From: a virus
Direction: 5' to 3' (one strand)
Length of the DNA: 64,000 nt
IMG/VR virus record: IMGVR_UViG_3300005663_001084
Span: 24,929-88,928 of that record
Under the pieces are notes generated by a model, which was given only the letters and a program-made list of their open reading frames with translations, made no database searches and was not told the origin of the DNA. This document shows positions 4,432-63,219 of the stretch, piece by piece. Position 1 is the first letter of the stretch. Every line of letters starts with the position of its first letter. The position numbers and the translations under genes are program-made.

Positions 4432-4907
4432 CAGCGGCCCTCGATCTTGTCCGCGACGTTCACCATCTGCGAGAGCATGTTCCGGTAGCCGCCGCCGTGT
4501 TCGATGTTGGGGACGTCCGCGCTGTGAACCGCATCGATCTCGGTCTCACCGCGCTGAAGCGCCTCAATCGCCCGGTGGTGACCGTCCAGTATGAACCAGG
4601 CAGCGCGCTTTTCGAGCTTGCTGACCAGGAGCGGACTCTTAGCAGCATGGTAGGATAACTCCCCTTTCTCGATTTCACTGAAGGTTTTATCAATCTTCGG
4701 TTCCCAGGCGTACAGGCTGCGCAGCCGGACGCGCCAGGGTTTTCCCTTGATCGCGGCCTCAGCCAACAGACGCTTCACAAGATCGGGTGGGTAGCCCCGG
4801 TCAGAGCAGCCAGGAGGGGGTGCGGAGATCGAGCCGTCGCCGACCTGTTGGAAGACGCCGCGACCCTCGTTGAGGATGGAGCGAATGGCTTTGCGGGTGG
4901 GGTCCAT
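4431..4907 (-). CDS. L-family protein 4 with ParB/DGQHR-like nuclease domain
   Basis: N-terminus MDPTRKAIRSILNEG. Motif WFILDGHHRAIEALQRG, which is the ParB/Srx-type DGxHR signature. Confidence 0.7.
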   Translation of the reverse strand: MDPTRKAIRSILNEGRGVFQQVGDGSISAPPPGCSDRGYPPDLVKRLLAEAAIKGKPWRVRLRSLYAWEPKIDKTFSEIEKGELSYHAAKSPLLVSKLEKRAAWFILDGHHRAIEALQRGETEIDAVHSADVPNIEHGGGYRNMLSQMVNVADKIEGR

Positions 4908-4976
4908 CAGTCGTTTAGCATCCGCCGGGATTGTCCTCGTGGAATGAACTCGTCAGGTCGGCGTAGTGCATCGCAG

Positions 4977-5414
4977 TCAGTCTTCCTTGCCACCGCATAC
5001 GAGGGCGTTGTAGGTCAGCGCCACAGTCAGCAGGTTGTTGTGCTCGTAGGACAGCTTGGGGATCTCCAGCGACCGGAGGGTCATCTGCGGCTCGCCGTCG
5101 ATGTAGAGCATCCATCGGCCGGTGCGCACCGGCTCCCAGTCCGGGGAGTCCGGGCTGGTCTCGATGAGGTCGTTGCCGTCCCGGTCGAGGAACTTCAGCA
5201 CCATCTCGGGGACACGGCTCAGCAGGATCTGCCGGAACGAGACGGGCACCTCGAAGGCGACCCCCTCGTCGCGCATGTACTGGAGGACTTTCTCAGTGGC
5301 CTCTTCACCGATCCGGTCAGCGAGGTTCTGCGCCCACGGGTGGTCCATGGTCATCAGGTCGTAGGGCGCAGCGTCGAGGATCTGGAAGACGTTGCTGGGC
5401 TTCGGGAAGGGCAT
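4977..5414 (-). CDS. hypothetical protein
   Basis: ORF. Upstream sequence is TTGGCC-N18-TATACT followed by an AGGAGA ribosome-binding site. Confidence 0.5.
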   Translation of the reverse strand: MPFPKPSNVFQILDAAPYDLMTMDHPWAQNLADRIGEEATEKVLQYMRDEGVAFEVPVSFRQILLSRVPEMVLKFLDRDGNDLIETSPDSPDWEPVRTGRWMLYIDGEPQMTLRSLEIPKLSYEHNNLLTVALTYNALVCGGKED

Positions 5415-5480
5415 GGCAGGTCTCCTGGTAGGTGGCAGATAGTATACCCGACCACCGGACAGGAGGCCAACAGTCAGATA

Positions 5481-6059
5481 TCAGGTCCCGATCTGGTCGG
5501 CGTCCACGTACTTGACCTGCTGTCCGCAGCCGATGCAACGGTCGAGCATCTCGATCCGTCCGTCGTCATCCCGGCGGAGCAGCAGTGTGCCCACCACGCA
5601 GAACGGACACTCCCGCGAGAACGAGTCTGCCCGCACCGGCTCCAGGTCAGCGTAGTAGATCCGGAGGATAGGCTTCTCGATGTTACTTGGCTTCGTCGGC
5701 TCAAGTTTCGTCGAAATCAGCACCCGGCTGTAATAGTCGCCCCGGAACCCCTCAGAGTCGAAACGGGTCCGCTTGGGATCGATAGCATCCGTCGGGTCCA
5801 TGTAACCCACCCGAGCGCCTGCGTCCTCCAGATGACCGCCGATGATACGAGCCAAGGTGGTCTTCCCGCAGCCGAGGATACCGCTCAAGGAGATCTCGAC
5901 CATGCCGTGGCCTTCGACGTTGCAATCTTTCACGAGCGCATCCACCTTCTCGGCCATCTCCGGAGAGAAGACCTCGTTCCCACGAACAGTGCTCTCCAGG
6001 ATCTCGTCCTGCGCGCCGTACACGCGGTCTACCAGCTTCTTCCTGTGATCGTCGTCCAT
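5481..6059 (-). CDS. P-loop NTPase, possibly (d)NMP-kinase-like, with C-terminal zinc ribbon
   Basis: Walker A GILGCGKTTLARIIG. C-terminal CPFC...CIGCG. Confidence 0.55.
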   Translation of the reverse strand: MDDDHRKKLVDRVYGAQDEILESTVRGNEVFSPEMAEKVDALVKDCNVEGHGMVEISLSGILGCGKTTLARIIGGHLEDAGARVGYMDPTDAIDPKRTRFDSEGFRGDYYSRVLISTKLEPTKPSNIEKPILRIYYADLEPVRADSFSRECPFCVVGTLLLRRDDDGRIEMLDRCIGCGQQVKYVDADQIGT

Positions 6060-6103
6060 CGCTACTCCAAGTTGATCGGATCTTCAAGGTCATTCATAGT
6101 CAG

Positions 6104-6592
6104 TTACTCCTCAAGAATCTCCGGGTCGTCCAGAACCAAGCCGACGGCGACCCCGGCGGCCAGCCCCCACTTGAACTCGTCCATAAACTCAGGCATCTCA
6201 GCGTCACGCGCGAGAAGATCCGTCTGCGGGTACACCGCTTCAAGCGCATCGAACATCCGGATCATCGCCAAACTTTGCTTGGCGTCCGGCCCGTACAGCC
6301 CGATCCCGTTGAGGCTAAGGCGAACCATGTCGAGCGCAGCTTCGATGATGTGGGTAGTCGCCCTGTCCCCGTACTGCTCACGGAATGCCTGCATCGCCTT
6401 CTCAGCGACCTGGATTACCATCTTCTTCCCGCTGGTCAAGGTGACGATCCGGCACGTGGACGGCAGGACTAAGTTCCCGTCAGCGTCAAAAGATGACTGG
6501 TTGAGCTTGCAATCCCACAGAGCGATGATCCGCTCGAAGTCCTTCAGCGTGAAAGTGAGGGGGTTAGTGGTATCAGCCGCTGTACCGCTCAT
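6104..6592 (-). CDS. hypothetical protein
   Basis: ORF, ATGA-coupled to its downstream gene. Confidence 0.5.
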   Translation of the reverse strand: MSGTAADTTNPLTFTLKDFERIIALWDCKLNQSSFDADGNLVLPSTCRIVTLTSGKKMVIQVAEKAMQAFREQYGDRATTHIIEAALDMVRLSLNGIGLYGPDAKQSLAMIRMFDALEAVYPQTDLLARDAEMPEFMDEFKWGLAAGVAVGLVLDDPEILEE

Positions 6593-6771
6593 CGGGGTGT
6601 CTCCTTCTTCCTCAACGCCAGCATACCGCCCGTCGACGAGAGCAGAATCAGCATCGACGCTCCAAAGCCTGTGAGCAAGTGACTCTCCAACGACTGGCCC
6701 GTGGCTCCCAGGTACAGGAAGAACACGGCCATGAGCGTCAGCATGGTGACGTTAATTTTGACCAGCAGCAT
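6589..6771 (-). CDS. small membrane protein (60 aa)
   Basis: Internal start MLLVKINVTMLTLMAVFFLYLG, which is hydrophobic. Confidence 0.4.
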   Translation of the reverse strand: MLLVKINVTMLTLMAVFFLYLGATGQSLESHLLTGFGASMLILLSSTGGMLALRKKETPR

Positions 6772-9558: not shown

Positions 9559-9605
9559 AACAGTATTATCGGATCGGGGCGGCTATTTAGCCAAGGAAAA
9601 TTATC
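9559..9605 (-). promoter_or_regulatory. class-1 conserved leaderless promoter
   Basis: The reverse complement reads aattttccTTGGCTAAATAGCCgcCCcGATCCGATAATactgttATG. Confidence 0.65.
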
Positions 9606-11514
9606 CGGCAGCGTTTAACCGCTCAACCGCCTTGGAGAACGCAAGAACACGTAAGTAGGTAGTGTCTCTCACTTTTCCTGAAATCGCCTCGATGATCTTT
9701 TTTGCAGTACACTCGGCGATCCTGGCCCCTCTGGACAGTTCCTTCACAGAGTATCCCGCACACAGCGAGCGCATCACATGCGTGTCGACGAACACGGGAA
9801 GGTCCTCCCAGTGCCGGAGGCATACCTGCATCAGCATCCGCTTAAACAAATCCTTTTCCACACTGACCTGGGCACGCGCTATGCCGGAGACAAGCGCGCT
9901 GCCCTTCCGAGCCCTAGGTTGCCGTGGGCGATTTACCTTCGGACGCTTGACCACGCGAGTCCTCGCCTCTTTCAAGGCCTCGGCCGCTTGCGTGATCTGA
10001 TCAGCCCAGTGCTGCCGAACCCGACGGCCGGGCTTGTCCAAGTCGTAGAGGTACTCGTAAATGGTGTACCGTTTCATCCCGGTCACTTCCGCTACAACGC
10101 TGGCGGCCATCCCTCGAATCAGTGGCGCAATCTCCGAGAGCAGCACCGACCGTATAGGATTACAACGCAGTTGTACTTCCCGAGCCACCTTCGCTGCACA
10201 AGCACCCACGCAGTACCGGGACCGCCAGTTGAGCGGGAGGTCCGCCTTGCAGACGCAACACGCACGATAAGCCAGGGGCAGGTCTGGGCGAACGGTACCA
10301 AAAGCTGCCTGACTCACACGAACAATTCCCACGCTGACCTCGGCCACAACCTTTTGCTGCGTCTGCCCGGCGGCGTAGCGTTCGCGGATATCGCGGATGA
10401 GATCGTCATCGTCGAACCAATCCGGCTTTGGCTCTCGCAGCAACGCCTGTAACCGATACCGCTCCTTCTGCTTGGCTTCTACGAATTTCTCCAAACATTT
10501 CGTAGAACAATAAACCCAGCGACTGGGCGGCAAAGGAGACTTCCCACACTGCTTACATACGGTGCCAACCTGACTTTCCTTCCGCTCCTTCTTTAGCTCC
10601 CTCGACCGCCGAACCCCAGCGACCGCGCGCACCTGGGCGTGTCCCGCCGCGACACACTCACCCGTACAGTACTTGATGTACTTTCTTGGTCTTCCGAATC
10701 GGACGTAGAAGCGGTTGCATTTCGCACACCGTGGAGCGACCCGACCGCGACGCGTTCGCTGCTTCTTGCTTGGTGTAACCGGTTTATTGCCTATGAGGAA
10801 GTTTGCCGCATCTGCCTGCATTCCGTCGTAAGCGACGTCCAGCGCGGCTTTGCGAAGACGCACGCGCATAGCCTTCTGCCCACAGCCCCTACGCTGCGTC
10901 GAGCTTGGGCAGAACAGGGGCAGCTTGCCACCCTTCGGCGGTCGGCGAGCTTTGAATGTTTTTTCACAGTGCGCACAGACGATACTGATTGCACGAAGCG
11001 GGATCAGGGGAAGGTGCTTGTACGTCTTTCCAACCGCGACAGCGTATACCGATGCCGAGCAGACATCGAACTCCTCGGCCAGGGAATAGGATGTCTGACC
11101 ATCCGCCCAACGATCCCGGACTTCCATTACCTCGGCGTCGCTAAACAGTCCTCTACTGCCCCGACGACTCCGCCCTCTCGGGATAGTCCTTGCCCGGACG
11201 TCGTTTTCTATGGCACGCGCCTTACGGATTGCATACTTGGACGCGGCCTCACCGATCTGAGGGTACAGCGCCCGGTAGCTCCGCTTCTTAACGACGTCTT
11301 TGCAGGCGTCGTCACAGTACTGCTGATTGTAATTCTCGGCGTAAAAAGGCCCCTCGCAGGCGTTACACTCTCGGGCAGTGTCCCAGGCCCAGGTCTTACC
11401 CCGCAAAATATTACCGACGCAGGACTTATCTACGCTGTACGTCTTCGCAATACGTGCCCGGCTCCACCCCTGCCGGGCGCGCTTCCGAATCAGATCCGCC
11501 CGGCGGCGAGTCAT
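9601..11514 (-). CDS. multi-domain DNA-binding protein with four to five tandem HTH plus zinc-ribbon modules
   Basis: Repeated HTH-like segments: RARQGWSRARIAKTYSV, RDRWADGQTSYSLAEEF, RERYAAGQTQQKVVAEV. Each is followed by Cxx C...YC(S/T)xxC zinc ribbons. The start is taken at the internal Met MTRRRADL. Confidence 0.6.
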   Translation of the reverse strand: MTRRRADLIRKRARQGWSRARIAKTYSVDKSCVGNILRGKTWAWDTARECNACEGPFYAENYNQQYCDDACKDVVKKRSYRALYPQIGEAASKYAIRKARAIENDVRARTIPRGRSRRGSRGLFSDAEVMEVRDRWADGQTSYSLAEEFDVCSASVYAVAVGKTYKHLPLIPLRAISIVCAHCEKTFKARRPPKGGKLPLFCPSSTQRRGCGQKAMRVRLRKAALDVAYDGMQADAANFLIGNKPVTPSKKQRTRRGRVAPRCAKCNRFYVRFGRPRKYIKYCTGECVAAGHAQVRAVAGVRRSRELKKERKESQVGTVCKQCGKSPLPPSRWVYCSTKCLEKFVEAKQKERYRLQALLREPKPDWFDDDDLIRDIRERYAAGQTQQKVVAEVSVGIVRVSQAAFGTVRPDLPLAYRACCVCKADLPLNWRSRYCVGACAAKVAREVQLRCNPIRSVLLSEIAPLIRGMAASVVAEVTGMKRYTIYEYLYDLDKPGRRVRQHWADQITQAAEALKEARTRVVKRPKVNRPRQPRARKGSALVSGIARAQVSVEKDLFKRMLMQVCLRHWEDLPVFVDTHVMRSLCAGYSVKELSRGARIAECTAKKIIEAISGKVRDTTYLRVLAFSKAVERLNAAG

Positions 11515-12152
11515 CTTTTGCGTTTTTTGCTTGCCTTGGTGCGCAATAGCTGTTGGATCTTCTTGATCACGGTGCCCCGAGTGACGCGGTACCGCGTTCC
11601 GGTCGACATAATGGCCCATACGACGCCCTTGTCATCCAGTTCCGCGTCCGCGACGAACGGGACGGTCTTGCGGGTCCGGTTGAGCGGCAGCTTCGGCCTA
11701 GTGAACCCGAGCGCATCCGACAGAGGACGCGGGTCGGCGATCTCCAGGGCTTTGTCGATGGCCTTGTCGATCTTGACCCGGGTGATGCCGCCCTGGTTCT
11801 GCTTGACCCGCAGCATGTTCAGGTAGCTCGCACCGATCCCGCGCATCATGGCCACCTTGAGCGACTTGTCGGGCAGGTTCCCCCGGCCGACTTCGAGCAT
11901 CACCTTGAGGTGCTCCAGGCTGCGGAACAGGACGCCGTGCTCGACGAGGCAGCGGTCCGTGAACTTGACGAACTCCTCGGGGGGCAGCTTATCAGACACT
12001 TCGACCATGATGTACGAGACCTCCAGAAGGAAGTCGGACTCGGCCTCCCCGTACTGGTCGATGATGCGCATCGCGGCGGCTGCGGACTTGACTGCGCGGA
12101 TCTCCTTCATCGTGGTGTAGGACAGCTTGCGGCGCGTTTTAACTTTGGGCAC
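11511..12152 (-). CDS. hypothetical protein
   Basis: ORF; basic C-terminal tail KKRKR. Confidence 0.5.
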   Translation of the reverse strand: MPKVKTRRKLSYTTMKEIRAVKSAAAAMRIIDQYGEAESDFLLEVSYIMVEVSDKLPPEEFVKFTDRCLVEHGVLFRSLEHLKVMLEVGRGNLPDKSLKVAMMRGIGASYLNMLRVKQNQGGITRVKIDKAIDKALEIADPRPLSDALGFTRPKLPLNRTRKTVPFVADAELDDKGVVWAIMSTGTRYRVTRGTVIKKIQQLLRTKASKKRKR

Positions 12153-24721: not shown

Positions 24722-24964
24722 TCATGCCGTCACGCCCATCTCCTTCAGCTTTTCAAAGACATCCTCGGGGATCTTCTCCCAGAAGACGATGTGCCGGAGC
24801 TTGTAGCCGCCCTGCTGAGGTTTATGGAGCCAGAGCAGCGGGTGCTTGCTAGTGATGAGGCTGCGGAAGGCGGGGCCTTGGACATGCCCGCCGTGGTCAG
24901 GCGTGCTCAGGTAGTACTGCGTCTCTTCGGTGTAGCAGACGTAGTATCGGGTCCGGCTGGGCAT
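24722..24964 (-). CDS. hypothetical protein
   Basis: ORF. Confidence 0.4.
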   Translation of the reverse strand: MPSRTRYYVCYTEETQYYLSTPDHGGHVQGPAFRSLITSKHPLLWLHKPQQGGYKLRHIVFWEKIPEDVFEKLKEMGVTA

Positions 24965-34856: not shown

Positions 34857-35786
34857 ATGAAAGAAGTCAGCCCCCCGGCGGCAGATGTCGGCGTCCTAGT
34901 CGGCAGGTTCCAAGTCCACAAACTCCACGAAGCACACCTGGAACTGATCAGGCACGTGGTCAAGCACCACGACCGCGTGATGATCTTCCTGGGCATGTCG
35001 CCGTGCCGCGTCACGAGGAACAACCCCCTCGACTTCGACGCCCGCAAAGCGATGATCCAGGACGCCTTCCCGGACGTAAGTGTCTACTACGTCAGGGACT
35101 GCCGACCCGATGACCTGTGGTCTAAGCGCCTCGACAACATGATCTATGAGCACATCAAGCCGGGCGCGAAGGTCCTGCTGTACGGTGGGCGCGACGCGTT
35201 CATCAAGCACTACGAAGGCAAGATCCCCACGCGCGAGTTGGAGCAGGAGGTCTTCATCTCGGGCACCGCCGTGCGCAACACCATCGCCAACACCGTGCCC
35301 AAGACGACCGACTTCCGCGCCGGGGTCATCTGGGCCTCCCAGAATCAGTACCCGCGTGCCATCCCCACCGTCGACGTGGCCGTCTGGGACGAGACCGGCG
35401 AGAAGCTCCTACTGGCCCGCAAGCCCGACGAGGATCTCTACCGCTTCATCGGCGGCTTTGCCACTGGCCCAACGTACGAGTCCGACGCGCGGCGCGAGGT
35501 CGACGAGGAAGCGCACATCGCCATCACCGATCCAGTCTACGTGGGCTCGCATCAGGTCGACGACTGGCGCTACCGCAGCGAGGCCGACAAGATCGTCACG
35601 CTCCTATTCGAGGCCAAGCGGCTCAGCGGCAACCCACGTCCCGACGATGACATCGCTGAACTCAAGTGGTTTGATTTCGCAACACTCCGCGACGAAATGG
35701 TCGTCCCGGAGCACCGTCCACTCCTCAAGATGCTTCAATGCAAGAGGGAGACACACCATGAAGACGAACATCGTACTGGCGACTGA
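34857..35786 (+). CDS. nadM: bifunctional NMN adenylyltransferase/Nudix hydrolase (NadM-Nudix type)
   Basis: N-terminal cytidylyltransferase-fold block VLVGRFQVHKLHEAHLELI. Nudix box GGFATGPTYESDARREVDEEAHI. The 3' end overlaps the nadV start. Confidence 0.8.
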   Translation: MKEVSPPAADVGVLVGRFQVHKLHEAHLELIRHVVKHHDRVMIFLGMSPCRVTRNNPLDFDARKAMIQDAFPDVSVYYVRDCRPDDLWSKRLDNMIYEHIKPGAKVLLYGGRDAFIKHYEGKIPTRELEQEVFISGTAVRNTIANTVPKTTDFRAGVIWASQNQYPRAIPTVDVAVWDETGEKLLLARKPDEDLYRFIGGFATGPTYESDARREVDEEAHIAITDPVYVGSHQVDDWRYRSEADKIVTLLFEAKRLSGNPRPDDDIAELKWFDFATLRDEMVVPEHRPLLKMLQCKRETHHEDEHRTGD

Positions 35787-37140
35787 CAGCTACAAGCTCA
35801 CCCACTGGAATCAGTACCCACGCGGCACGGAGAAGGTCTACTCCTACTTCGAGGCGAGGCCCGGCGCGAAGTACCGCGACACCGTGTTCTTCGGTCTCCA
35901 GTACATCATCGCCGAGTACCTCGCAGGCCACGTCGTCACGACCCAGAAGATCGACGAGGCCGAGGCGTTGGCAGCCCAGCACTTCGGCAATCCGAACATC
36001 TTCAACCGCGCCCGCTGGGACCACATCGTCGACCAGCACGACGGCCGCCTGCCTGTCCGCATCAAGGCGGTGCCCGAGGGCACGCCGGTCCCTGTCAACA
36101 ACGTGATGATGACCATCGAGAACACGGACCCGGCCTGCTACTGGCTGACCAACCACCTGGAGACGATCCTCACGCACGTGTGGTACCCGTCCACCGTGGC
36201 CACGCAGAGCCGGGAGGCCAAGCGGATCTGCAAGAGGTACCTCGAAGAGACTGCCGAGTCCGCTGGCGGCCTGGACTTCATGCTGCACGACTTCGGCTAC
36301 CGTGGCGTGTCGTCGGTGGAGTCGGCTGGCCTCGGCGGCGCTGGTCACCTCGTCAACTTCCACGGCACTGACACCATCGCGGCGATGGAACTGCTGCGTC
36401 AGTACTACGATGCCGACGTACCCGCGTTCAGCGTACCGGCCACCGAACACAGCGTGATGACCGCGCACGGTGCAGACGGTGAGAACTGGGTGCTGTCGCA
36501 ACTGCTCGATGCCTACCCTACCGGCATCCTGTCCATCGTGATCGACTCGTACGACTACCGGAAGTTCATCAAGATGGCAGGCACGACGTTCAAGGATCGC
36601 ATCCTTGCCCGCGACGGCAAGGTCGTCTTCCGTCCCGACAGCGGAGATCCGTGCGAGGTGACACTGGAGGTCCTGGAACTGCTGGGCGAGTACTTCGGGT
36701 CAGCCGACGGTAAGCCCGGCTACAAGATCCTGCACCCCCAGGTCGGCGTGATCTGGGGCGATGGCATCGATCTCGAAGACATGGAGCGCATCCTGGCCGA
36801 CATCACCTACGCGGGTTGGAGCGCCGAGAACATGGTGTTCGGCATGGGCGGCGGCCTGCTCCAGAAAGTCAACCGCGACATCCAGCGCTTCGCGTTCAAG
36901 AGCAGCTACCAGGAGCGCGGCGGCGAAGGCCACGACATCTTCAAGGAGCCCATCGACAAGACCAAGACCAGCAAGAAGGGCCGACTGAAGCTGGTGCGCC
37001 TCGAAGGCGCGCACGGCTCCACGCTGACCACCGTCGGCATCGATGATCCACGCGAGGACCTGCTGGAGACGGTCTTCGAGGGCGGTCAGGTCCTGAAACG
37101 TTACAGCCTGGACGAGATCCGCGCGAGAGCAGCACTGTAA
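35758..37140 (+). CDS. nadV: nicotinamide phosphoribosyltransferase (NAMPT/NadV)
   Basis: MKTNIVLATDSYKLTHWNQYP...FGYRGVSS...HGTDT. It is co-linear with the NAMPT family throughout. The track ORF 35146..37140 is over-extended into the nadM alternate frame. Confidence 0.85.
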   Translation: MKTNIVLATDSYKLTHWNQYPRGTEKVYSYFEARPGAKYRDTVFFGLQYIIAEYLAGHVVTTQKIDEAEALAAQHFGNPNIFNRARWDHIVDQHDGRLPVRIKAVPEGTPVPVNNVMMTIENTDPACYWLTNHLETILTHVWYPSTVATQSREAKRICKRYLEETAESAGGLDFMLHDFGYRGVSSVESAGLGGAGHLVNFHGTDTIAAMELLRQYYDADVPAFSVPATEHSVMTAHGADGENWVLSQLLDAYPTGILSIVIDSYDYRKFIKMAGTTFKDRILARDGKVVFRPDSGDPCEVTLEVLELLGEYFGSADGKPGYKILHPQVGVIWGDGIDLEDMERILADITYAGWSAENMVFGMGGGLLQKVNRDIQRFAFKSSYQERGGEGHDIFKEPIDKTKTSKKGRLKLVRLEGAHGSTLTTVGIDDPREDLLETVFEGGQVLKRYSLDEIRARAAL

Positions 37141-43403: not shown

Positions 43404-45230
43404 CTACTCAAAAACGTGAATTTCAGTCGGGCTGAACTCGGAGCGGAGCATTCCGATCAACTGGTTGGTGAGTTTGAAGCGTCCAGGGTTCATGGCGCTG
43501 AGCCTTCCGGTGTCACCCTCATAATGACCTTTCCAGTACTGGTCGGGGTTCGGCCAGAGCATACCATGCGACCACGTGGGCAAGCCTCGTCCCTTCTCTT
43601 CTTGTTGATCGACGTAAGCCTGCAACGCTTCGGGATCGCTTAGGTCAACACCCTCGTCCTCGATGTTAGGCATGTTAAGCTGATGGTAACGCTGGATTTC
43701 GCCGTGCATCAGAACCCAAATCTCATGGGTCAGCGGATCGGTGTACTCCATCCCGTCGTCATACGAGGTGTTCCCGTGTCCGAGGTCGAAGTAAAATACG
43801 GATGTACCTTCATCGTCGATCTTGTGGAGCGTGACATCGCTGGCGACGACAGATTCGGGGAGGCTCTCCTTGTCCATCACCACAAGAGCCGGAAGCGCCT
43901 CGACACCCAGGACGTGGAGAGCGTCGTACCGGTGGCTGCCCTCCAGGACGTACGGGCCTTCTTTGTCGACAACCACGATCAGCGGCACGATCCAACCACT
44001 TGCAGCGATCTGCTGCGCCAGTTCGCGGGCCGCCTCGTTGTCATCTCCAGAAGTCTCGAAAGCAGACAAGGGAACGGCGCGGATGCCGGACAGCACCTCG
44101 TAGTCCAGAAGACTGGCCGCGATGGAACTGGTATTTGGAACTTCGTCACCCACGCGGAGGCCGCTGACCTCGTCACCAGCCCGTGGGTAGAGTTCGTCCT
44201 CCTGGGCCTCGGCGAGTATTCGACGTATCACACGTCGGCTTTCGGTCAGCGCCTCGTCCTGCCCGGCGTAAAACCTGCGGATCGCACCCATGATGCGGCG
44301 CGAGTTTTCTCCGGGATCGAACATGTAGGACTTATTCCGTTCGGCCTTCCAGTAGTAGTCGTTACGCTCGTCGAATTCGCCCAGGCCGTCCTCCATATCG
44401 ACCGGCATGCCCTCGGCGCTGAAGTTATCGATCCAGCCCTCCAAGGTCCGGTACTGCGCCGAGGTGGGCTGGACCATCATGTCGAGGCCGCCGTCTTCAG
44501 GCATCAGACGGATCGCGCCCAGGCTCATAAACTCCTGCATGCCGCGCGTGCCGCCCCCGCCGTAACCGATGTTCCGATGGTCAAAGCCGCGCCCGTAGCC
44601 GCCGCCCCCGCCCGAGATCATGTCGCCGTCAGGCAGCAAGTAGAACGCATCGGTGAAGCTGCTCGTGATCCCGAACCGGCCCTTGGCTTTCTCGAACGGG
44701 TCGGCCTCGTCCTCCGCGTCCTCTACGCCGGGCCAGTCCTCCATGGACAGCGGCATCTCGTTGTCTAGCTTTCGGAGAACCTGGAGCGGGATCTCGCGGT
44801 ACCTGGACTCCTGGCCGTTCTGCACACTACGGAATACGGAGCGAGCGTACTCTCCGGCCGACCAGCCGAACTCGTCACTGATCACTCCAATGATCCGGGC
44901 GTGGAAGTCCAGCAGTATCTGGGGTTCGTTCTGGACGAGCGCAGCCATCTCTCCCGGATTCCAGTTGAGTGCGTCGTAGACCGCGCTCCAGATAGTCCGG
45001 TGCTCACCCTCGTCGAACGTAGCCAGCGTGTACTCGGGGAACAGTTCAGTGACAATCCTCTCGTAGCGCTGCCAGTCGTAGTCCCTGTCCTCCTCACGGT
45101 TTACCGCGTCCAGGAAGAACTCCCGCAGGTGATCGTACGTCATGTTCCAGACGTGCCGAGGCTGGGTGGGAGCCTCAACGCTGGCCTGCTCGGCCAACAC
45201 CTGCCGCATCACTAGGCGAGTGGCATCCAT
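43404..45230 (-). CDS. L-family protein 14 (about 608 aa) with internal leader copy, ParB-like domain and a C-terminal domain shared with protein 13
   Basis: N-terminus MDATRLVMRQVLAEQ. Internal copy ESRRVIRRILAEAQ. ParB-like motif YVLEGSHRYDALHVLG. C-terminal FYFDLGHGN...LPTWSH...EIHVFE. Confidence 0.7.
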   Translation of the reverse strand: MDATRLVMRQVLAEQASVEAPTQPRHVWNMTYDHLREFFLDAVNREEDRDYDWQRYERIVTELFPEYTLATFDEGEHRTIWSAVYDALNWNPGEMAALVQNEPQILLDFHARIIGVISDEFGWSAGEYARSVFRSVQNGQESRYREIPLQVLRKLDNEMPLSMEDWPGVEDAEDEADPFEKAKGRFGITSSFTDAFYLLPDGDMISGGGGGYGRGFDHRNIGYGGGGTRGMQEFMSLGAIRLMPEDGGLDMMVQPTSAQYRTLEGWIDNFSAEGMPVDMEDGLGEFDERNDYYWKAERNKSYMFDPGENSRRIMGAIRRFYAGQDEALTESRRVIRRILAEAQEDELYPRAGDEVSGLRVGDEVPNTSSIAASLLDYEVLSGIRAVPLSAFETSGDDNEAARELAQQIAASGWIVPLIVVVDKEGPYVLEGSHRYDALHVLGVEALPALVVMDKESLPESVVASDVTLHKIDDEGTSVFYFDLGHGNTSYDDGMEYTDPLTHEIWVLMHGEIQRYHQLNMPNIEDEGVDLSDPEALQAYVDQQEEKGRGLPTWSHGMLWPNPDQYWKGHYEGDTGRLSAMNPGRFKLTNQLIGMLRSEFSPTEIHVFE

Positions 45231-45688
45231 CAGCCCCAGGCTTCCTTGTCGTGCTGTACCAGCGCGCGGGTCATGTCCTGGGTGAGCGGCTCGACGTTGA
45301 TGGTGTCTTCCGACGGGACCGCAGCCATCCGCTTGAGCCACTGCCCTTCCGCCCCGGCCTGCGAAAGCGGGTCTGCCGTGTCGACCTCCCACTCCTCGCC
45401 GCTCGGGCTGAACGTGACAATGGAGATGTCGCCGCTCCCCATGGCCTGATTCAGATCCCAGTCCATCTTCGAGGCCCAGCGTATGGCGTCGAACTTGTTA
45501 TCGAACGCGAAGATTTCACCCTGGCCGTAGCGCTCGCCAGTCCCAGACATGGCCCAGTTGGAGGGCTGCATCGGGACGAGCCCACGCTTCTGGATATCTG
45601 AGACCCGGTCAGTGGGGGTGACGTGGTAGTACTCGACGCCCTGGGCCTCGGTGAGTATCCGTCTGAGGGCTCTGCGGGTGGGGTCCAT
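45230..45688 (-). CDS. L-family protein 15; possible ART-like fold
   Basis: Internal start MDPTRRALRRILTEAQ. Motifs YYHVTPTDR, GEIFAFD and EEWEVD. Confidence 0.6.
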   Translation of the reverse strand: MDPTRRALRRILTEAQGVEYYHVTPTDRVSDIQKRGLVPMQPSNWAMSGTGERYGQGEIFAFDNKFDAIRWASKMDWDLNQAMGSGDISIVTFSPSGEEWEVDTADPLSQAGAEGQWLKRMAAVPSEDTINVEPLTQDMTRALVQHDKEAWG

Positions 45689-46852: not shown

Positions 46853-47335
46853 ATGCCAGAAGATCACGACTGGAAAGCGATCAGCCAACTGATGGAGCAG
46901 GCGTCCGTCCTGGCCCAGCGGTACAATCTGTGCATCTGGAACGGCATCAAAGCTGACGGCAGCAGGCACATCGAAGCCTACCGCATGAAGCGTGGCGAGA
47001 AGGACGTTGTGCTGACTACCCCGAGCATGGAAAAAATGATCGAGAAGCTCACCGTGATGGCTGTAGAGGGGAAGCTGGAACATCACGACCGCGCCGTCGA
47101 AGACATCGACCCAGAGATCTGGCACCTGCACATCGACAGCGCTGCGTTCAATCTGCTGCACAAGACACAGGATCTGCACCAGACGTTCAGTCATCTGATC
47201 GGCCCGGTAGGGCTGGTGTACGACCGGTACTGCGTCATCGACATGCAGCTACGGAACCTGTGCCTATCTATCCAAAACCTAACCAGTTCGATACGCAAAG
47301 TCCCCATTCGAGAAAGAGAGAAGAAGCATGGATAA
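46853..47335 (+). CDS. hypothetical protein
   Basis: Internal start MPEDHDWKAIS. Confidence 0.45.
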   Translation: MPEDHDWKAISQLMEQASVLAQRYNLCIWNGIKADGSRHIEAYRMKRGEKDVVLTTPSMEKMIEKLTVMAVEGKLEHHDRAVEDIDPEIWHLHIDSAAFNLLHKTQDLHQTFSHLIGPVGLVYDRYCVIDMQLRNLCLSIQNLTSSIRKVPIREREKKHG

Positions 47336-48002
47336 TCCGATCATCGTGGCCCTCGATGGCATCGACATGTCGAAGGCTATCGCTCTCGCGCAGCTATTGA
47401 AGGATGACGTGTGGGGGTTCAAGGTCAACGACCTGTTCTTCCAGCACGGCATCCAGGCTGCCAACAACCTCGGGGTCTTTGGCAACGTCATGCTCGATGG
47501 GAAGTTCCACGACATCCCGAATACCGTGGAGAACACCACGAAGAAGATCGCAATCTTCGGCCACCCGGCTCCCGGCATCGTTACCATACACGCCTCCGGC
47601 GGCCCTGCGATGATACGGGCTGCTGTTGAGTACCTTCCGGGAAAGGTTGCGGCTGTCACCGTGCTCACGTCATTAGACGAGGACGCCTGCATGCACGTTT
47701 ACAACGTGCGGCCTGAGGTTGCCGTCAAGCGCCTCGCCAGTATGGCCCACGAATACGGAGCCAGCTTCATTGTGTGCAGCCCTCTGGAACTTGCCGCGCT
47801 CAAAGACATCCCTCGTCCCAAGATCGTCCCAGGCATCCGCCCGCTCTGGTACCAGGAGGCTGACGATCAGGCGCGGAAAATGACTCCTGCCGAGGCAATG
47901 GAAGCCGGGGCCGGGTTCCTGGTCATGGGCCGTCCGATCCTGCGCGCGGACGATCCGGTCGAAGCCGCGCAGCGCACACTCGAAGAGATCAAGAAGGGGT
48001 AA
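47328..48002 (+). CDS. pyrF: orotidine 5'-phosphate decarboxylase
   Basis: IVALDGIDM...FKVN; LDGKFHDIPNTV (catalytic DxKxxDIPNT); HASGG; VTVLTS; PGIRP; GRPI. All OMPDC signature blocks are present, in order. Confidence 0.85.
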   Translation: MDNPIIVALDGIDMSKAIALAQLLKDDVWGFKVNDLFFQHGIQAANNLGVFGNVMLDGKFHDIPNTVENTTKKIAIFGHPAPGIVTIHASGGPAMIRAAVEYLPGKVAAVTVLTSLDEDACMHVYNVRPEVAVKRLASMAHEYGASFIVCSPLELAALKDIPRPKIVPGIRPLWYQEADDQARKMTPAEAMEAGAGFLVMGRPILRADDPVEAAQRTLEEIKKG

Positions 48003-54959: not shown

Positions 54960-55383
54960 ACCCAGCGACGAGTTCTGGGCAGCCTTCCGTTGCGGCGGAA
55001 GCCTCGTCATCCTGTGCGAGCACTGCGGACGGACACACTTCTGTACCACTTCCGGGGCTGTCGACTACAACGAAGGTGAACTGGAAGAGCTACTGGAGAA
55101 GGCCAAGAAAGACCCCGACATGTACCGTGAAGACGGCACGTACAGCAGCATCGAGTGGGGATACATCGGCGGGAAGCAGTCTGTCATGCACTGCCCCTGC
55201 AACGAAGAGAAGATCGCTCCCTACGAACAGTTCATCATCGTCCACGCCGAACAGATCCTGGAGTATCTCCAGAGCCGAGCTAATAAAAAACTCAGGAGTT
55301 CTCAGAGCCTCATGGACAAGGTCAACGAGACACTTAACGCCACAGAGGAAGCAGACAATGCGAGTAACCGTAGCCCCGAATGA
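54949..55383 (+). CDS. zinc-binding protein
   Basis: CEHCGRTHFC...HCPC. Confidence 0.45.
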   Translation: MMRKPSDEFWAAFRCGGSLVILCEHCGRTHFCTTSGAVDYNEGELEELLEKAKKDPDMYREDGTYSSIEWGYIGGKQSVMHCPCNEEKIAPYEQFIIVHAEQILEYLQSRANKKLRSSQSLMDKVNETLNATEEADNASNRSPE

Positions 55384-56566
55384 ACCGCCCGAGTCCTGGA
55401 CCTCATCGGTTTTCCTCGCCGGTCCCACGCCACGCAAAGAGGGCGACACCCGCTGGCGTGACAAAGCTATCGCGGAGTTCAAGAAGAGAGGCTTCGACGG
55501 TGTGATCCTCGACCCCGAGCGTGAGGACTGGCCCGAAGACAAAGAGGGCTACGAAGAGCAGATCCACTGGGAGCAGGAGATGCGCGAGCGGTGCGACGTA
55601 ATCCTGTTCTTCGTCCCGCGCCACATGGAACTGGCCCCCGGACTGACGACCAACATCGAGTTCGGCCAGGACCTATCAGGCTGGAAGGTCGTCTACGGCA
55701 GGCCCAACGACGCGGTCAAGATGGACTACATGGATCTCATCTACAAGCAGCGCTACAAGGTGGTCCACGAGACGTCCATCGAGGCCACGGTCCAGGCCGC
55801 CATGGACATGATCGAGACGCTCACGGAGAAGATCCACGACGTCGAGGCGGAGACGAGTGCGCTGCGTGAGGACGGCGAGACCTATGTGCCTCTTCACATC
55901 TGGTCGTCTCCCCAGTTCCAGTCCTGGTACAAGGCTCAGCTTGCCGTGGGCAACCGTCTTGACGCCGCCCGCGTGGAGTACGCGTTCGTGATGCCCAAGG
56001 CAGGGCTGCTGTTCATGTTCGTACTGTGGGTCAAGGTCTGGATCGAGGCAGAGCAGCGGCACAAGGAGAACGAGTTCATCGTCAGCCGCACCGACATCTC
56101 CACCATCGTGGCGTACAAGAAGGCGCTGTCCGGATCGCTGGCCGACACTGAACTGGTCCTGGTCCAGGAGTTCCGCAGCCCGGTCCGTAACAGCAGCGGC
56201 TTCGTCTACGAGTTGCCCGGTGGGTCAAGCATCAAGCCTGGGCAGGACCCGCTACAGATCGCGGCCGAAGAACTCCACGAGGAAACCGGCATCAAGATCG
56301 ACGACCCGAAGCGGTTCGTTCAGGTCATGCCGAAGCAGCTTGTCGCCACCATGCTCACGCACCAAGCCCACGTCTTCGCCATCGAACTGACCGAGGAGGA
56401 GATGGCTGTCGCGCGGGCCAAGGACGCGGCCGACGAGACCCACGGTCTGGAAGAGGACTCGGAGAAGACCTACGTCCGGGTCACGACGTTCGGTGAGCTT
56501 CCCGACCGCGATGTCGACTGGTCGACCATCGGGATGATCACCACGGCCCTACGCCAGGAACTCTGA
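55358..56566 (+). CDS. fusion of nucleoside 2-deoxyribosyltransferase-like (DNPH1/NDT fold) and Nudix hydrolase
   Basis: N-terminal SVFLAGPTP...CDVILFFVP...TNIEFG. C-terminal Nudix-like box GGSSIKPGQDPLQIAAEELHEETG. The start was moved from the over-extended track ORF 55076. Confidence 0.5.
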   Translation: MRVTVAPNEPPESWTSSVFLAGPTPRKEGDTRWRDKAIAEFKKRGFDGVILDPEREDWPEDKEGYEEQIHWEQEMRERCDVILFFVPRHMELAPGLTTNIEFGQDLSGWKVVYGRPNDAVKMDYMDLIYKQRYKVVHETSIEATVQAAMDMIETLTEKIHDVEAETSALREDGETYVPLHIWSSPQFQSWYKAQLAVGNRLDAARVEYAFVMPKAGLLFMFVLWVKVWIEAEQRHKENEFIVSRTDISTIVAYKKALSGSLADTELVLVQEFRSPVRNSSGFVYELPGGSSIKPGQDPLQIAAEELHEETGIKIDDPKRFVQVMPKQLVATMLTHQAHVFAIELTEEEMAVARAKDAADETHGLEEDSEKTYVRVTTFGELPDRDVDWSTIGMITTALRQEL

Positions 56567-56567
56567 C

Positions 56568-56864
56568 ATGCCTCCAGCGATTATGATGTCTTACGACCGT
56601 GTGCAGGTCTTCCGGTTTGGCGACGGCACTGATTGGGTTGCTACGCGTGACGTCGACGAGGCCATCAAGTGGTACTGTGCCGAGAACGGGTTCGAGGATG
56701 CCGACGATGCCGGATTCGATCCGAATCCCGTCTGCCTGATGACCGAGCACTACATCGAAGGGAACAACCCTGAAGCAGGTCGGGAGACCTTCCTCGACTG
56801 CATCAAGATACGCATTAAGAATGGCTGGGAGTTCCCGGCCGTCATCAGCAGCGAGAACTCCTGA
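56568..56864 (+). CDS. hypothetical protein
   Basis: ORF. Confidence 0.45.
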   Translation: MPPAIMMSYDRVQVFRFGDGTDWVATRDVDEAIKWYCAENGFEDADDAGFDPNPVCLMTEHYIEGNNPEAGRETFLDCIKIRIKNGWEFPAVISSENS

Positions 56865-56865
56865 T

Positions 56866-57687
56866 ATGAATGATGATTACCATGGTCCTCCGCCAGGAGT
56901 TACAGCCATGAATTTCGACACCGAGCTTGTGCAGTGCATGGTCGACCGCATCTGCGATTTTCACAGGGGCCAGACCCGTAAGGCCCTGCCGATCCCGTAC
57001 ACCTTTCATCTCTTCGACGTGGCCAAGACGCTGGTCAACTGGGGCATCGAAGATGCCGACGTCATTGCCGCTGGTCTGGGGCACGACCTGATCGAGGACA
57101 CCAAGGACAGTCACCCCAGCCTGATCGCACAATTCGGCACACGTATCGCCGGGATGATCGACGAACTGACTTGGGTCAAGGAGGACGGCACCAGTCGGAC
57201 GGCCAAGGTCAAGCACTGGAAGCAGTTCGCCGAGCACTCCACCATCCAGGCCCTGGTCATCAAGGCGGCCGACCGCTACTGCAACGTCCGGGACTACGCC
57301 CGGCAGCGCAGTCGGGACAACGAGTACGAAGGCGAGTACGCGGCCCGGTATGCCTGCTATCTGTACCCGGTGTGGCGGGCGATCTACACTCGGCAGGACG
57401 AGGTCTCTCGGGTCTTCGGAGACAGGGCGCAGCGGCTCATGGACCCGGACATCCGGTGGATCATCCGCCTCATCCGCTGCGACGTGAAGATTTGCCTGGA
57501 CGTCATCAACTCCAGGACGGTCCTCATCGACGGCGCTCTGGACATCGGGCTGGGCAAGGAACTTTGCGACGCTCAGGCTGATCTGGAGAGGCTGAACCAC
57601 GAGCGCTCCAAGAACGAGAAGGAGATCCAGGCAGCCGAATTGAGGCTCCATAAGCTGAATAGGCGGGCCTCCGATGAGCCTGAGTGA
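56866..57687 (+). CDS. HD-domain phosphohydrolase of the SpoT/Mesh1 small-alarmone-hydrolase type
   Basis: FHRGQTRKALPIPYTFHLFDVAKTL...AAGLGHDLIEDT matches the RelA/SpoT HD signature. The alternative start ATG 56908 has an AGGAG ribosome-binding site. Confidence 0.65.
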   Translation: MNDDYHGPPPGVTAMNFDTELVQCMVDRICDFHRGQTRKALPIPYTFHLFDVAKTLVNWGIEDADVIAAGLGHDLIEDTKDSHPSLIAQFGTRIAGMIDELTWVKEDGTSRTAKVKHWKQFAEHSTIQALVIKAADRYCNVRDYARQRSRDNEYEGEYAARYACYLYPVWRAIYTRQDEVSRVFGDRAQRLMDPDIRWIIRLIRCDVKICLDVINSRTVLIDGALDIGLGKELCDAQADLERLNHERSKNEKEIQAAELRLHKLNRRASDEPE

Positions 57688-62316: not shown

Positions 62317-63219
62317 TTGTACAATAGGATCATGTACAAGACCTGCACAAACCCGACGTGCCAACAGTCTAACCCACAGTCGGTCTCAAACTTCGCTATC
62401 GACCGGCGTGTCAAGACGAAGATATCTTATCAGGCTAGGTGCAGGGACTGCAAGCGGCAAGCCGCCCGGGAGAACAGGCGGAAACGTGTACAGGAGAGCA
62501 AGGGTCTTTATTCTCGATGGAGTACGATGAAAACTCGGTGCTATAACAAGAACTGCGACGCGTATAAGTACTATGGAGCCCGAGGGATTGAGGTATGTAA
62601 AGGCTGGAGAGAATCCTACGGAGCCTTTGAGGCGTGGGCTCTAGCCTCCGGCTACGACCCGAAGAAGACGCTGGACCGCGTAGACTGCACCGGACCGTAC
62701 TCCCCAGATAACTGCCGGTGGGCGACGTGCCAGGAGCAGGCACTAAACACTCGTAGGACGAATCCTGGAAGACACAAGCCAAAGCCCAGAAAGAGTAAGT
62801 CCAGCAGAGCCCCTCTCGAAGTAGTGATGAAAAGACGCTGGTACGATATGCGAAACAGATGCAGCAATCCGAACAACAGAGCGTACCTCCACTACGGGGG
62901 CAGAGGCATTCTCATAGCCTCAGAGTGGCAGGACTTTGCCACCTTCCGCATTTGGCTGATCAGCCAGGGTTTCAAGGTAGAACTTACATTGGATCGTGTC
63001 GACGTAAACGGATCGTACTCCCCAGAAAACTGTCGGCTTGCAACAAGAACACAGCAAGCCAGAAACACACGACAGGTTAGGTTGTCCAGAGAAAAGGCAG
63101 CAGAGATCAGGATACTCTCTGCCCAAGGTGTATCCGGTAGGCAGATCGCCAAGCGATTTGGAGTTACGCCACCAACCATTTACTCAGTGCTAAACGGAAG
63201 ACTTTGGCGCACGCCATAG
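62317..63219 (+). CDS. tandem-domain DNA-binding protein (actinophage HNH-like/YGGRGI family) with C-terminal HTH; lower GC
   Basis: Two repeats of RW..M..RC.N.....Y.YYG(A/G)RGI.VC..W..F..F........LDRVD..G.Y.P.NCR.AT, followed by RQIAKRFGVTPPTIYSVLNG. Confidence 0.5.
   Translation: MYNRIMYKTCTNPTCQQSNPQSVSNFAIDRRVKTKISYQARCRDCKRQAARENRRKRVQESKGLYSRWSTMKTRCYNKNCDAYKYYGARGIEVCKGWRESYGAFEAWALASGYDPKKTLDRVDCTGPYSPDNCRWATCQEQALNTRRTNPGRHKPKPRKSKSSRAPLEVVMKRRWYDMRNRCSNPNNRAYLHYGGRGILIASEWQDFATFRIWLISQGFKVELTLDRVDVNGSYSPENCRLATRTQQARNTRQVRLSREKAAEIRILSAQGVSGRQIAKRFGVTPPTIYSVLNGRLWRTP

Follow-up and report, generated by a model that had tools for sequence, protein, structure and literature searches.

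A PF15891-Nudix fusion protein of a large phage-like element and its putative role in NAD+ and ADP-ribose turnover

A 64,000-nucleotide stretch of viral DNA (IMG/VR record IMGVR_UViG_3300005663_001084, positions 24,929 to 88,928), referred to in its full length as the window, encodes a fusion protein in which an N-terminal domain of the nucleoside deoxyribosyltransferase (NDT) type is followed by a C-terminal Nudix domain. The protein is best explained as a bifunctional hydrolase in the turnover and salvage of nicotinamide adenine dinucleotide (NAD+) and ADP-ribose (ADPR), a reading that is given a probability of about 0.55. This reading draws on the two folds and their conserved catalytic-type residues, on the breadth of the family, on the islands of NAD genes in which relatives of the fusion gene are found and on the predicted NrtR-type operators that precede such genes. 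Because the relatives lie inside NAD+ salvage clusters, recycling of the products of NAD+ breakdown, rather than of DNA precursors, is the most likely role.

Conservation was counted column by column in 114 full-length homologues with about 45% identity to the query. The N-terminal domain matches PF15891 (Nuc_deoxyri_tr2) in Pfam over aa 16-93 (E=1.5e-12, 48.2 bits against a cut-off of 30) and falls into a family of unknown function in PHROGs; the Pfam search gave no match to PF05014, the family of NDTs and DNPH1. Its three-layer alpha/beta fold superposes on solved members of the PF15891/NDT type. The motifs F19-L-A-G22-P-T-P-R26, D80 and T97-T-N-x-E101-F-G103 are kept in the homologues; F19, G22, W33, R34, P53, W71, E72, D80, E101 and G103 are invariant, and P23, P25, R26, Y65, Q68, W85, P87, R88, T97, T98 and N99 nearly so. 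The initial annotation of this DNA, made from the sequence alone, had proposed an NDT/DNPH1-like N-terminal fold on the strength of motifs from this region, and both the PF15891 match and the conservation of those motifs bear it out.

The nearest structure to the N-terminal domain is 4mcj (BDI_0649 of Parabacteroides distasonis, a PF15891 protein of unknown function), and NDTs, DNPH1/Rcl and the CMP hydrolase MilB come after it; DNPH1/Rcl and the classical NDTs are not the closest structures. E101 lies in the TTNxEFG motif at the start of the helix that follows strand 3, where it aligns with a glutamate of 4mcj. Judged by its position in the motif, it is the probable counterpart of the catalytic Glu98 of NDTs, and an equivalence to the NDT residues Glu98 and Asp72 is inferred in the same way. 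R26, R34, R88 and T97-T98-N99 are found in the fusion family only and not in 4mcj; these arginines and the TTN segment are candidates for family-specific phosphate contacts. No ADP-ribosyl cyclase was present in the best 60 fold matches, and neither CD38 nor the Aplysia cyclase was the closest protein to the domain in structure or in sequence. The fold search with the predicted structure places the domain with PF15891 and the NDTs, not with the CD38-type cyclases.

The C-terminal half matches PF00293 (NUDIX) at aa 263-341, a marginal match at E=1.4e-4 and 22.3 bits against a Pfam cut-off of 21.1, and is assigned to 'nudix hydrolase' in PHROGs. An NDT-type and a Nudix profile, the two that the initial annotation had named as its check, were therefore both matched above their cut-offs. 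Foldseek against the PDB aligned residues ~190-402 over ~215 columns with the whole of the ADPR pyrophosphatases (ADPRases) NudF from E. coli (1g0s) and Klebsiella (9b1z), and the GDP-mannose hydrolase NudK (YffH, 3o6z) was also among the matches. For NudF and NudK the E values were 2e-11 to 5e-9, with target-normalised template modelling (TM) scores of about 0.7 (0.64-0.70 for the 200-residue NudF chains). These are the best structural matches to this part of the protein and share its metal-binding glutamates, but they are only 13-16% identical to it and lack its 190-residue N-terminal extension. The top matches in a sequence search of the PDB were likewise ADP-ribose/ADP-sugar pyrophosphatases (Thermus Ndx4, B. 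methanolicus Act and NUDT5), and the scores of MutT models were just 13-14 bits. The structural and sequence matches thus assign the C-terminal half to the NudF-type NDP-sugar pyrophosphatases and not to the compact MutT type. The two-subdomain architecture of the ADPRases, an N-terminal beta sheet followed by the Nudix fold, is present.

The Nudix box of the query reads G289-x6-Q296-x7-E304-E305-L-H-E308-E309-T-G311-I, and that of the family G289-x6-[E/K/Q]-x7-[D/E/H/S]-E305-[LV]-x-E308-E309-T-G311-[LI]. It carries one inserted residue and departs from the full GX5EX7REUXEEXGU pattern; the box had been called degenerate in the initial annotation, and it is so in this respect and in the two lost residues discussed below. 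Of the metal-binding glutamates, E305 and E309 are invariant and E308 is present in 112 of the 114 homologues. The acidic loop D367-S-E369-x-T371 is likewise conserved and probably resembles the loop that provides the catalytic base in NudF and NudK. The beta-sheet subdomain ahead of the Nudix fold has its own invariant residues, namely E232, R234, K236, N238, E239 and R244.

The AlphaFold2 model of the whole protein, built on the 114 homologues, reached a predicted local distance difference test (pLDDT) value of 94.3 and a predicted TM score (pTM) of 0.90, which suggest a fixed arrangement of the domains. The catalytic-type residues E72, D80, E101, E305, E309 and E369 are all invariant. Since invariant residues occur in the N-terminal domain, the linker, the beta subdomain and the Nudix fold, it can be argued from the alignment that both halves are probably catalytic and tightly coupled. 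The two folds and these residues also lend support to the initial view of a putative two-headed nucleotide-cleaving enzyme. To judge from these patterns the fusion is a real, well-conserved two-domain protein, combining a predicted base-removing-type domain with a predicted ADP-ribose-type Nudix domain. In the BFVD fold library no close full-length relative was found.

A word-indexed search gave 1421 relatives of the fusion protein, the best 120 of which are nearly all full-length two-domain proteins. With the N-terminal domain alone, phmmer found 1161 matches among 1.84 billion cluster representatives, 811 of them at E<=1e-10; their lengths cluster at ~380-420 aa, the length of the Nudix fusion, and at ~150-190 aa, that of a standalone domain. 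At least 191 encoding stretches are present in IMG/VR, and of the best 80 the majority are on contigs 100-620 kb long. GenBank phages with the full-length form are Bacillus phage G (gp334, AEO93593.1) and an uncultured 485-kb phage. In the GTDB species genomes there are at least 585 encoding stretches, carried by many Patescibacteria/Saccharibacteria contigs from metagenome-assembled genomes (MAGs), by Planctomycetes, by Myxococcota (among them Enhygromyxa salina and a Nannocystaceae contig of 6.97 Mb) and by isolates of Actinomadura and Spirillospora. All 45 relatives of unusual length that were considered match PF15891. A few relatives (among P0122-P0252) join the same N-terminal domain to a Metallophos_2/Metallophos phosphoesterase in place of Nudix, so that the domain has been coupled to phosphoester cleavage a second time, independently. 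One relative in the same group carries a Sak single-strand-annealing domain, and in P0171 the PF15891 domain is C-terminal (aa 248-367).

The gene neighbourhoods of the relatives provide the functional context. Open reading frames (ORFs) were called in 164 homologue loci and in the window, clustered by BLASTP, and the cluster representatives annotated with Pfam. The cluster around the relative P0037 has the order NMNAT-like, isochorismatase (PncA), NAD kinase, NAPRTase (PncB), fusion, His_Phos_1, radical SAM, ADP-ribosylglycohydrolase (ARH), Prs and NadE. The most frequent neighbour families across the 164 loci are NrtR (Nudix + NrtR_WHD; 26 loci), NMNAT-like cytidylyltransferases (18+9+8 loci), PncB (17), NadE (15), PncA (14), NAD kinase (13) and ARH (12), and smaller clusters of about 6 loci each are formed by NAMPT, Prs and NadA; in five jumbo-phage loci NAMPT neighbours the fusion gene. 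Typical islands run NADK-NadE-NrtR-rSAM-PncA-PncB-fusion-NadA-NMNAT, or fusion-kinase-...-NrtR-NAMPT-...-NMNAT. With the fusion proteins dereplicated at 70% identity, 44 of 111 lineages had one or more NAD genes within 10 kb, and 25 had two or more; at 55% identity the corresponding values were 19 and 14 of 48. The immediate neighbour (<300 bp) is an NAD gene in 21 of 135 loci.

Several other features of these loci can be recorded. The NAD islands have recurrent members besides the NAD genes, namely a ~290-aa radical-SAM protein (10 loci), an unannotated ~230-aa family designated 'unk3' (17 loci) and a His_Phos_1 phosphatase (examples at L105:9018-9887, L040:17441-18130 and L004:9320-10138); neither the radical-SAM protein nor 'unk3' had a sequence match in the PDB. 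One jumbo-phage clade (L027-L030, L037, L040, L051, L056) has the fusion gene among RNA-repair-type genes (Ro60/TROVE-vWA, RlaP nucleotidyltransferase, 5'-3' exonuclease and P-loop kinase) together with an NMNAT-like gene. In nine phage loci (L019, L023, L033, L036, L054, L058-L061) a dNMP-kinase-like (PF21448) gene follows the fusion gene after 10-30 nt, and its product may instead be another kind of P-loop kinase, such as one for a ribosyl product. In Actinomadura/Spirillospora isolates the fusion gene is flanked by genes for the Der GTPase and for a bacterial nitric oxide synthase (PF02898, E=3e-153), an order kept across three genomes (L152:11176-12558, L162:11182-12468), and the gene contexts in Actinomadura, Nannocystaceae and Enhygromyxa are uninformative.

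Palindromes were sought de novo in the intergenic DNA flanking NAD genes of the NrtR-bearing loci. A 19-bp palindrome, TAGTGT-N7-ACACTA, occurs in 21 exact copies in the 2.88 Mb of loci, against 0.18 expected from composition, and in five shuffles there were 0 copies. The palindrome was found and counted on the same data, with ~45,000 half-site/spacer combinations tried, and the excess is far beyond what this number of combinations could explain. NrtR boxes are palindromic and share a GT-N7-AC core (Rodionov et al. 2008, PMC2330246). Both the core and the symmetry of the new palindrome agree with those published boxes, and it is predicted to be an NrtR-type operator. It is found just upstream of NadE, PncA, PncB, NADK, ARH, NadA and nrtR itself, in 15 loci in all, on contigs labelled as Patescibacteria and Gammaproteobacteria (e.g. 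L106:6866). Fusion-containing operons are also preceded by it: ARH-fusion in L117 (8927), PncA-PncB-fusion-NMNAT in L146 and, in L158, a fusion-PncB-NMNAT operon with two exact copies 19 and 93 nt ahead of the fusion ORF (L158:6257-6349). In L131 one copy with a single mismatch lies 19 nt ahead of the fusion ORF (L131:9963). ADP-ribose releases NrtR from DNA (PMC2330246), and an ADP-ribose-consuming enzyme within the predicted NrtR regulon would parallel the NrtR-controlled NadM-Nudix; the fusion family is not mentioned in Rodionov et al.

We infer the catalysis, the substrates, the order of the reactions and the benefit to the phage from these observations as follows. The NudF-type half would most likely split ADPR, or a close NAD-derived relative, into AMP and a ribose phosphate, and the N-terminal domain would most likely act on a nucleotide of that reaction chain by cutting its N-glycosidic bond. 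Candidate bonds are those that hold nicotinamide in nicotinamide mononucleotide (NMN) or NAD-like molecules, adenine in AMP, or the N-link of cyclic ADPR (cADPR). Products of NAD+ consumption would in this way become ribose-5-phosphate, AMP and free base, and would feed the re-synthesis of NAD+ that depends on phosphoribosyl pyrophosphate (PRPP), carried out by NadV/NatV in this element and by PncA/PncB/NMNAT/NadE in the relatives. The phage would gain a supply of NAD+ during infection, including under the action of host NADase defences. As to the function first suggested for the protein, the degradation of signalling nucleotides or modified deoxynucleoside monophosphates (dNMPs), its former part stands within the space of NAD and ADPR (ADPR/cADPR), and its latter part is disfavoured, there being no PF05014 match, a Nudix half that is not of the MutT type and an NAD-salvage context.

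Several observations weigh against a role in NAD+/ADPR turnover. About 60% of the related loci have no NAD gene within 10 kb, the copies in cultured Actinomadura and in Myxococcota lie in unrelated contexts (Der GTPase, NO synthase), and some jumbo-phage loci place the fusion gene beside a dNMP-kinase-like gene, ThyA and PurA. In the window itself the fusion gene is outside any NAD island, its NadV/NatV pair is 18 kb off, and neither an NrtR nor a TAGTGT-N7-ACACTA site was found. Furthermore, the NatV-like protein of this phage already has an ADPRase-type Nudix domain; a second ADPR hydrolase therefore looks redundant, and the true substrate may differ. The Nudix box lacks the Arg of REUxEE and the first Glu (GX5E), two residues that normally pair in Nudix boxes, and the subfamily model for ADPRases, the hidden Markov model TIGR00052, reaches only 14 bits where its cut-off is 79.55. 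The ADPRase signature, reportedly described by Dunn et al. in 1999 as a conserved Pro some 15-16 residues past the Nudix box, is unconserved here: position 325 is Pro in the query and S/A/T/G in the family, and it is R326-Q327 that is conserved after the box instead. An NAD-degrading activity encoded in NAD-synthesis operons would be a futile cycle unless it were limited to by-products. Finally, no experimental work on the fusion family, and no biochemical data for any of its members, were found in the literature.

Alternatively, the protein could be an anti-defence eraser of immune messengers derived from NAD+ (1''-2'/1''-3' glycocyclic ADPR (gcADPR), N7-cADPR, His-ADPR), the N-terminal domain opening the glycosidic link and the Nudix domain cutting the pyrophosphate, with recycling as a by-product. 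The enrichment of the family on jumbo-phage contigs, the ADPR-type Nudix domain, the relationship of the N-glycosidase fold to TIR and the alternative fusion to Metallophos_2 are all consistent with this; ADPRibase-Mn, a hydrolase of cADPR, is a member of the broader calcineurin-like metallophosphoesterase superfamily. A role of this kind has been proposed in general for phage Nudix, SLOG and Macro domains (PMC9503650). However, the family also occurs in housekeeping contexts of non-viral genomes, its predicted NrtR control is shared with biosynthetic genes, no known defence or anti-defence model was matched (PADLOC, with the fusion protein and five neighbouring ORFs), and the links in gcADPR are O-glycosidic whereas this fold typically acts on N-glycosidic bonds, so that such an eraser is considered unlikely. 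Slightly less probable still is the 'toggle' of Iyer, Aravind et al., in which the N-terminal domain, of the ADP-ribosyl cyclase (ARC)/NADase-like kind, makes a cADPR-like messenger from NAD+ to manipulate the host and the Nudix domain destroys it. It has been put forward for the phage G homologue, which has the same two domains, but the fold search sets the N-terminal domain apart from CD38-type cyclases.

Two further explanations assign other tasks to the domains. In the first, one domain would be a non-catalytic sensor, either a Nudix domain that binds ADPR and gates the N-glycosidase or an N-terminal domain that binds a nucleotide and gates the Nudix domain. The degenerate box with its lost residues and its profile score close to the cut-off would suit such a sensor, as would the tight inter-domain coupling suggested by the high pTM and the conserved linker; NrtR is a precedent for a Nudix domain turned ADPR sensor (PMC2330246), and the TIR/DrHyd/SLOG class includes non-catalytic binders (PMC9503650). 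Nevertheless the metal-binding glutamates, the acidic loop, E72, D80 and E101 remain invariant at about 45% identity, a pattern typical of catalysis in both domains, which makes a sensor quite improbable. The other explanation is sanitation of the nucleotide pool or remodelling of DNA precursors, where a MutT-like half would produce dNMP from a (modified) dNTP or dNDP-X, and the base would then be removed by a DNPH1-like domain. Its sole support is the dNMP-kinase-like neighbour in some phage loci. The two-subdomain NDP-sugar/ADPRase type of the Nudix half, the low MutT scores and the missing PF05014 match all speak against it, and the context that dominates and is most specific is that of NAD genes and NrtR operators; such sanitation is accordingly regarded as very improbable. 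Hydrolysis in NAD+ and ADPR turnover is the preferred explanation.

The coordinates of the fusion gene, its domains and the neighbouring genes are collected in Table 1. The extent given for the gene by the initial annotation is exact, from the ATG to the final TGA, and the program-called ORF is longer (GTG 55076 to 56566). The 402-aa translation matches the database entry P0001 at 100% identity ('hypothetical protein LCGC14_0164520 [marine sediment metagenome]'; longest contig carrying it, 224,854 bp), the homologues all start at a Met aligned with this ATG, a Shine-Dalgarno-like element lies upstream and the preceding ORF overlaps the start by 26 nt. For these reasons the ATG is taken as the start of the gene.

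Table 1. Positions, within the window, of the fusion gene, its parts and other genes discussed in the text.
Feature	Positions	Strand	Remarks
NatV/NadM-Nudix-like gene	34857..35786	+	NMNAT motif GRFQVHKLHEAH and canonical Nudix box
NAMPT/NadV gene	35758..37140	+	ATG 35758 taken as start, preceded by AGAGGGAGA
Orotidine-5'-phosphate decarboxylase gene	47328..48002	+	PF00215, E=2e-35
Cys-rich ORF, 144 aa	54949..55383	+	Upstream of fusion gene, overlapping its start by 26 nt
Shine-Dalgarno-like GAGGAAG	55345..55351	+	6 nt ahead of the ATG; identified by reading the sequence
Fusion gene, 402 aa	55358..56566	+	ATG start; TGA stop codon included
NDT/DrHyd-like Rossmannoid domain, aa 1-135	55358..55762	+	PF15891; five-stranded alpha/beta
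TTNIEFG motif, aa 97-103	55646..55666	+	E101 at the position of the NDT-type catalytic Glu
Conserved helical linker, aa 136-198	55763..55951	+	R170, P178 and W190 invariant
Beta-sheet subdomain, aa 199-255	55952..56122	+	Counterpart of the N-terminal subdomain of NudF-type ADPRases
Nudix fold, aa 256-402	56123..56563	+	Includes the invariant acidic loop D367-S-E369-x-T371
Degenerate Nudix box GSSIKPGQDPLQIAAEELHEETGI, aa 289-312	56222..56293	+	
ORF, 98 aa	56568..56864	+	Begins 2 nt past the fusion stop codon
HD_4 gene	56821..57687	+	PF13328; SpoT/Mesh1/small-alarmone-hydrolase-like; HDLIEDT motif

The local operon consists of the 144-aa Cys-rich ORF, the fusion gene, the 98-aa ORF and the HD_4 gene, which overlap or are separated by a few nt. 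The overlap of the 144-aa ORF with the fusion gene is typical of coupled genes; its product had no family match in profile searches, has CxxC...CPC cysteine pairs resembling a zinc ribbon, and is kept only in a near-identical contig. The 98-aa ORF gave weak PHROG matches only, to families of unknown function. The alarmone-hydrolase-like HD protein that had been noted beside the fusion gene is indeed there, with that ORF between them; it most closely matches SpoT hydrolase domains, small alarmone hydrolases and Mesh1, and its true start may be ATG 56908 rather than 56821. As a conserved partner of the family HD_4 was considered and rejected. It is directly upstream of the fusion gene in L005, the closest IMG/VR homologue (L005:9322-9924), and near it in one MAG copy, L164, and since only these two of ~135 related loci share it, the link is not a family trait. 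Mesh1 is reportedly an NADPH phosphatase, and by analogy an NAD(P)-related role of the HD_4 protein is conceivable. A scan for promoters and terminators around the fusion gene yielded nothing over shuffle expectation.

The NAD salvage genes of the window are the NatV-like and NAMPT genes, the end of the former overlapping the start of the latter. This pair is KVP40-like and of the NARP2 type described below, and it lies ~18-20 kb upstream of the fusion gene. The NAMPT gene matches phrog_448 (E=3.5e-160) as well as PF18127 and PF04095; the program-called ORF for it (35146-37140) overstates the gene by ~200 codons. A tblastn search of the window with NAD-island proteins found no PncA, PncB, NadE, NrtR or ARH, and the NadV and NatV-like genes, detected with profiles, were the only NAD genes recovered. 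The window also encodes orotidine-5'-phosphate decarboxylase, an unusual auxiliary nucleotide-synthesis gene for a phage-like element, and two HNH homing-endonuclease-like ORFs at 9601-11619 (-) and 62317-63219 (+; phrog_3377, E=4e-68). No tRNA genes were found in it. Its layout is one of dense co-directional small ORFs without family matches, and its two largest ORFs had no tblastn match in 50,697 phage records. For most of the large ORFs (e.g. 4848-6674 and 43404-45392) there is no match in PHROGs, Pfam or GenBank phages, which sets the element very far apart from phages in culture; it has the appearance of a novel large phage.

Depletion of NAD+ and messengers derived from it play a central part in bacterial antiphage immunity, and since 2024 three pathways have been reported by which phages reconstitute NAD+. 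It is a tentative and rather unlikely possibility that the fusion family is an undescribed NAD+ recycling module, being both an eraser of immune signals and the missing step from ADPR/NMN to ribose-5-phosphate. If so, one polypeptide would remove both base and pyrophosphate from ADPR and the cADPR isomers of NADase/TIR immunity, or from NMN produced by NAD-dependent ligases, giving ribose-5-phosphate for PRPP, and a fourth phage route of NAD+ reconstitution would exist, of the Preiss-Handler type (PncA-PncB-NMNAT-NadE under a phage- or MAG-borne NrtR). NMN nucleosidase, to our knowledge a long-known activity with no assigned gene, might then gain one. The family has more than 1,000 members and is abundant in jumbo phages and on Patescibacteria-labelled MAG contigs; its activities, once defined, would show how ADP-ribose by-products return to NAD+ synthesis or how NAD-derived signals are destroyed, and would give a first function to any PF15891 domain. 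Bacillus phage G, with gp334, is a cultivable entry point. The family is timely for the biology of NAD+ in phages. It is neither unprecedented nor mechanistically surprising.

Prior work on the family concerns gp334, a full-length homologue (39% identity over 100% of the protein) that shares both domains and the invariant residues of the fusion protein. Iyer, Anantharaman, Krishnan, Burroughs and Aravind (2021) assigned gp334 (AEO93593.1) to the 'ARC superfamily' as a novel jumbo-phage member fused to Nudix, and predicted that it uses NAD+ to make ADPR-derived signals which the fused domain degrades (PMC7824862). Both the fusion architecture and a connection with NAD+ had thus been predicted before, in passing (PMC7824862, PMC9503650). 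In those accounts the domain is rare in phages, whereas the counts above extend it to hundreds of viral and genomic stretches, and neither NAD-salvage islands nor NrtR operators, both of which are reported here, were described. New in this analysis are the size of the family, the structural placement with PF15891/NDT and NudF, the NAD-salvage islands, the NrtR-type operators and the Metallophos fusion.

Functional parallels are NadM-Nudix (Synechocystis, Francisella) and NatV of Vibrio phage KVP40, which couple an ADPRase Nudix domain to NAD salvage (PMC7824862, PMC13464706). Like the fusion protein they join an ADPR-type Nudix domain to a second domain of the NAD pathway, and they are encoded in NAD salvage clusters with NadV/Prs, under NrtR. 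Their partner domain is a HIGH-motif nucleotidyltransferase (NMNAT), while that of the fusion protein has the NDT/DrHyd N-glycosidase fold and the Pfam search found no CTP_transf_like match in it; unlike them, the fusion protein keeps the extra N-terminal NudF beta subdomain in its Nudix half. With the phage NAD+ reconstitution pathways, NARP1 (Adps + Namat), NARP2 (Nampt + Nmnat) and NARP3 (PnuC + NadR-like), it shares the theme of phage-encoded restoration of NAD+. It belongs to none of the three, and is predicted to act hydrolytically on by-products where the NARPs are synthetic; the window carries a NARP2-type pair, and larger NAD islands surround the relatives of the fusion gene.

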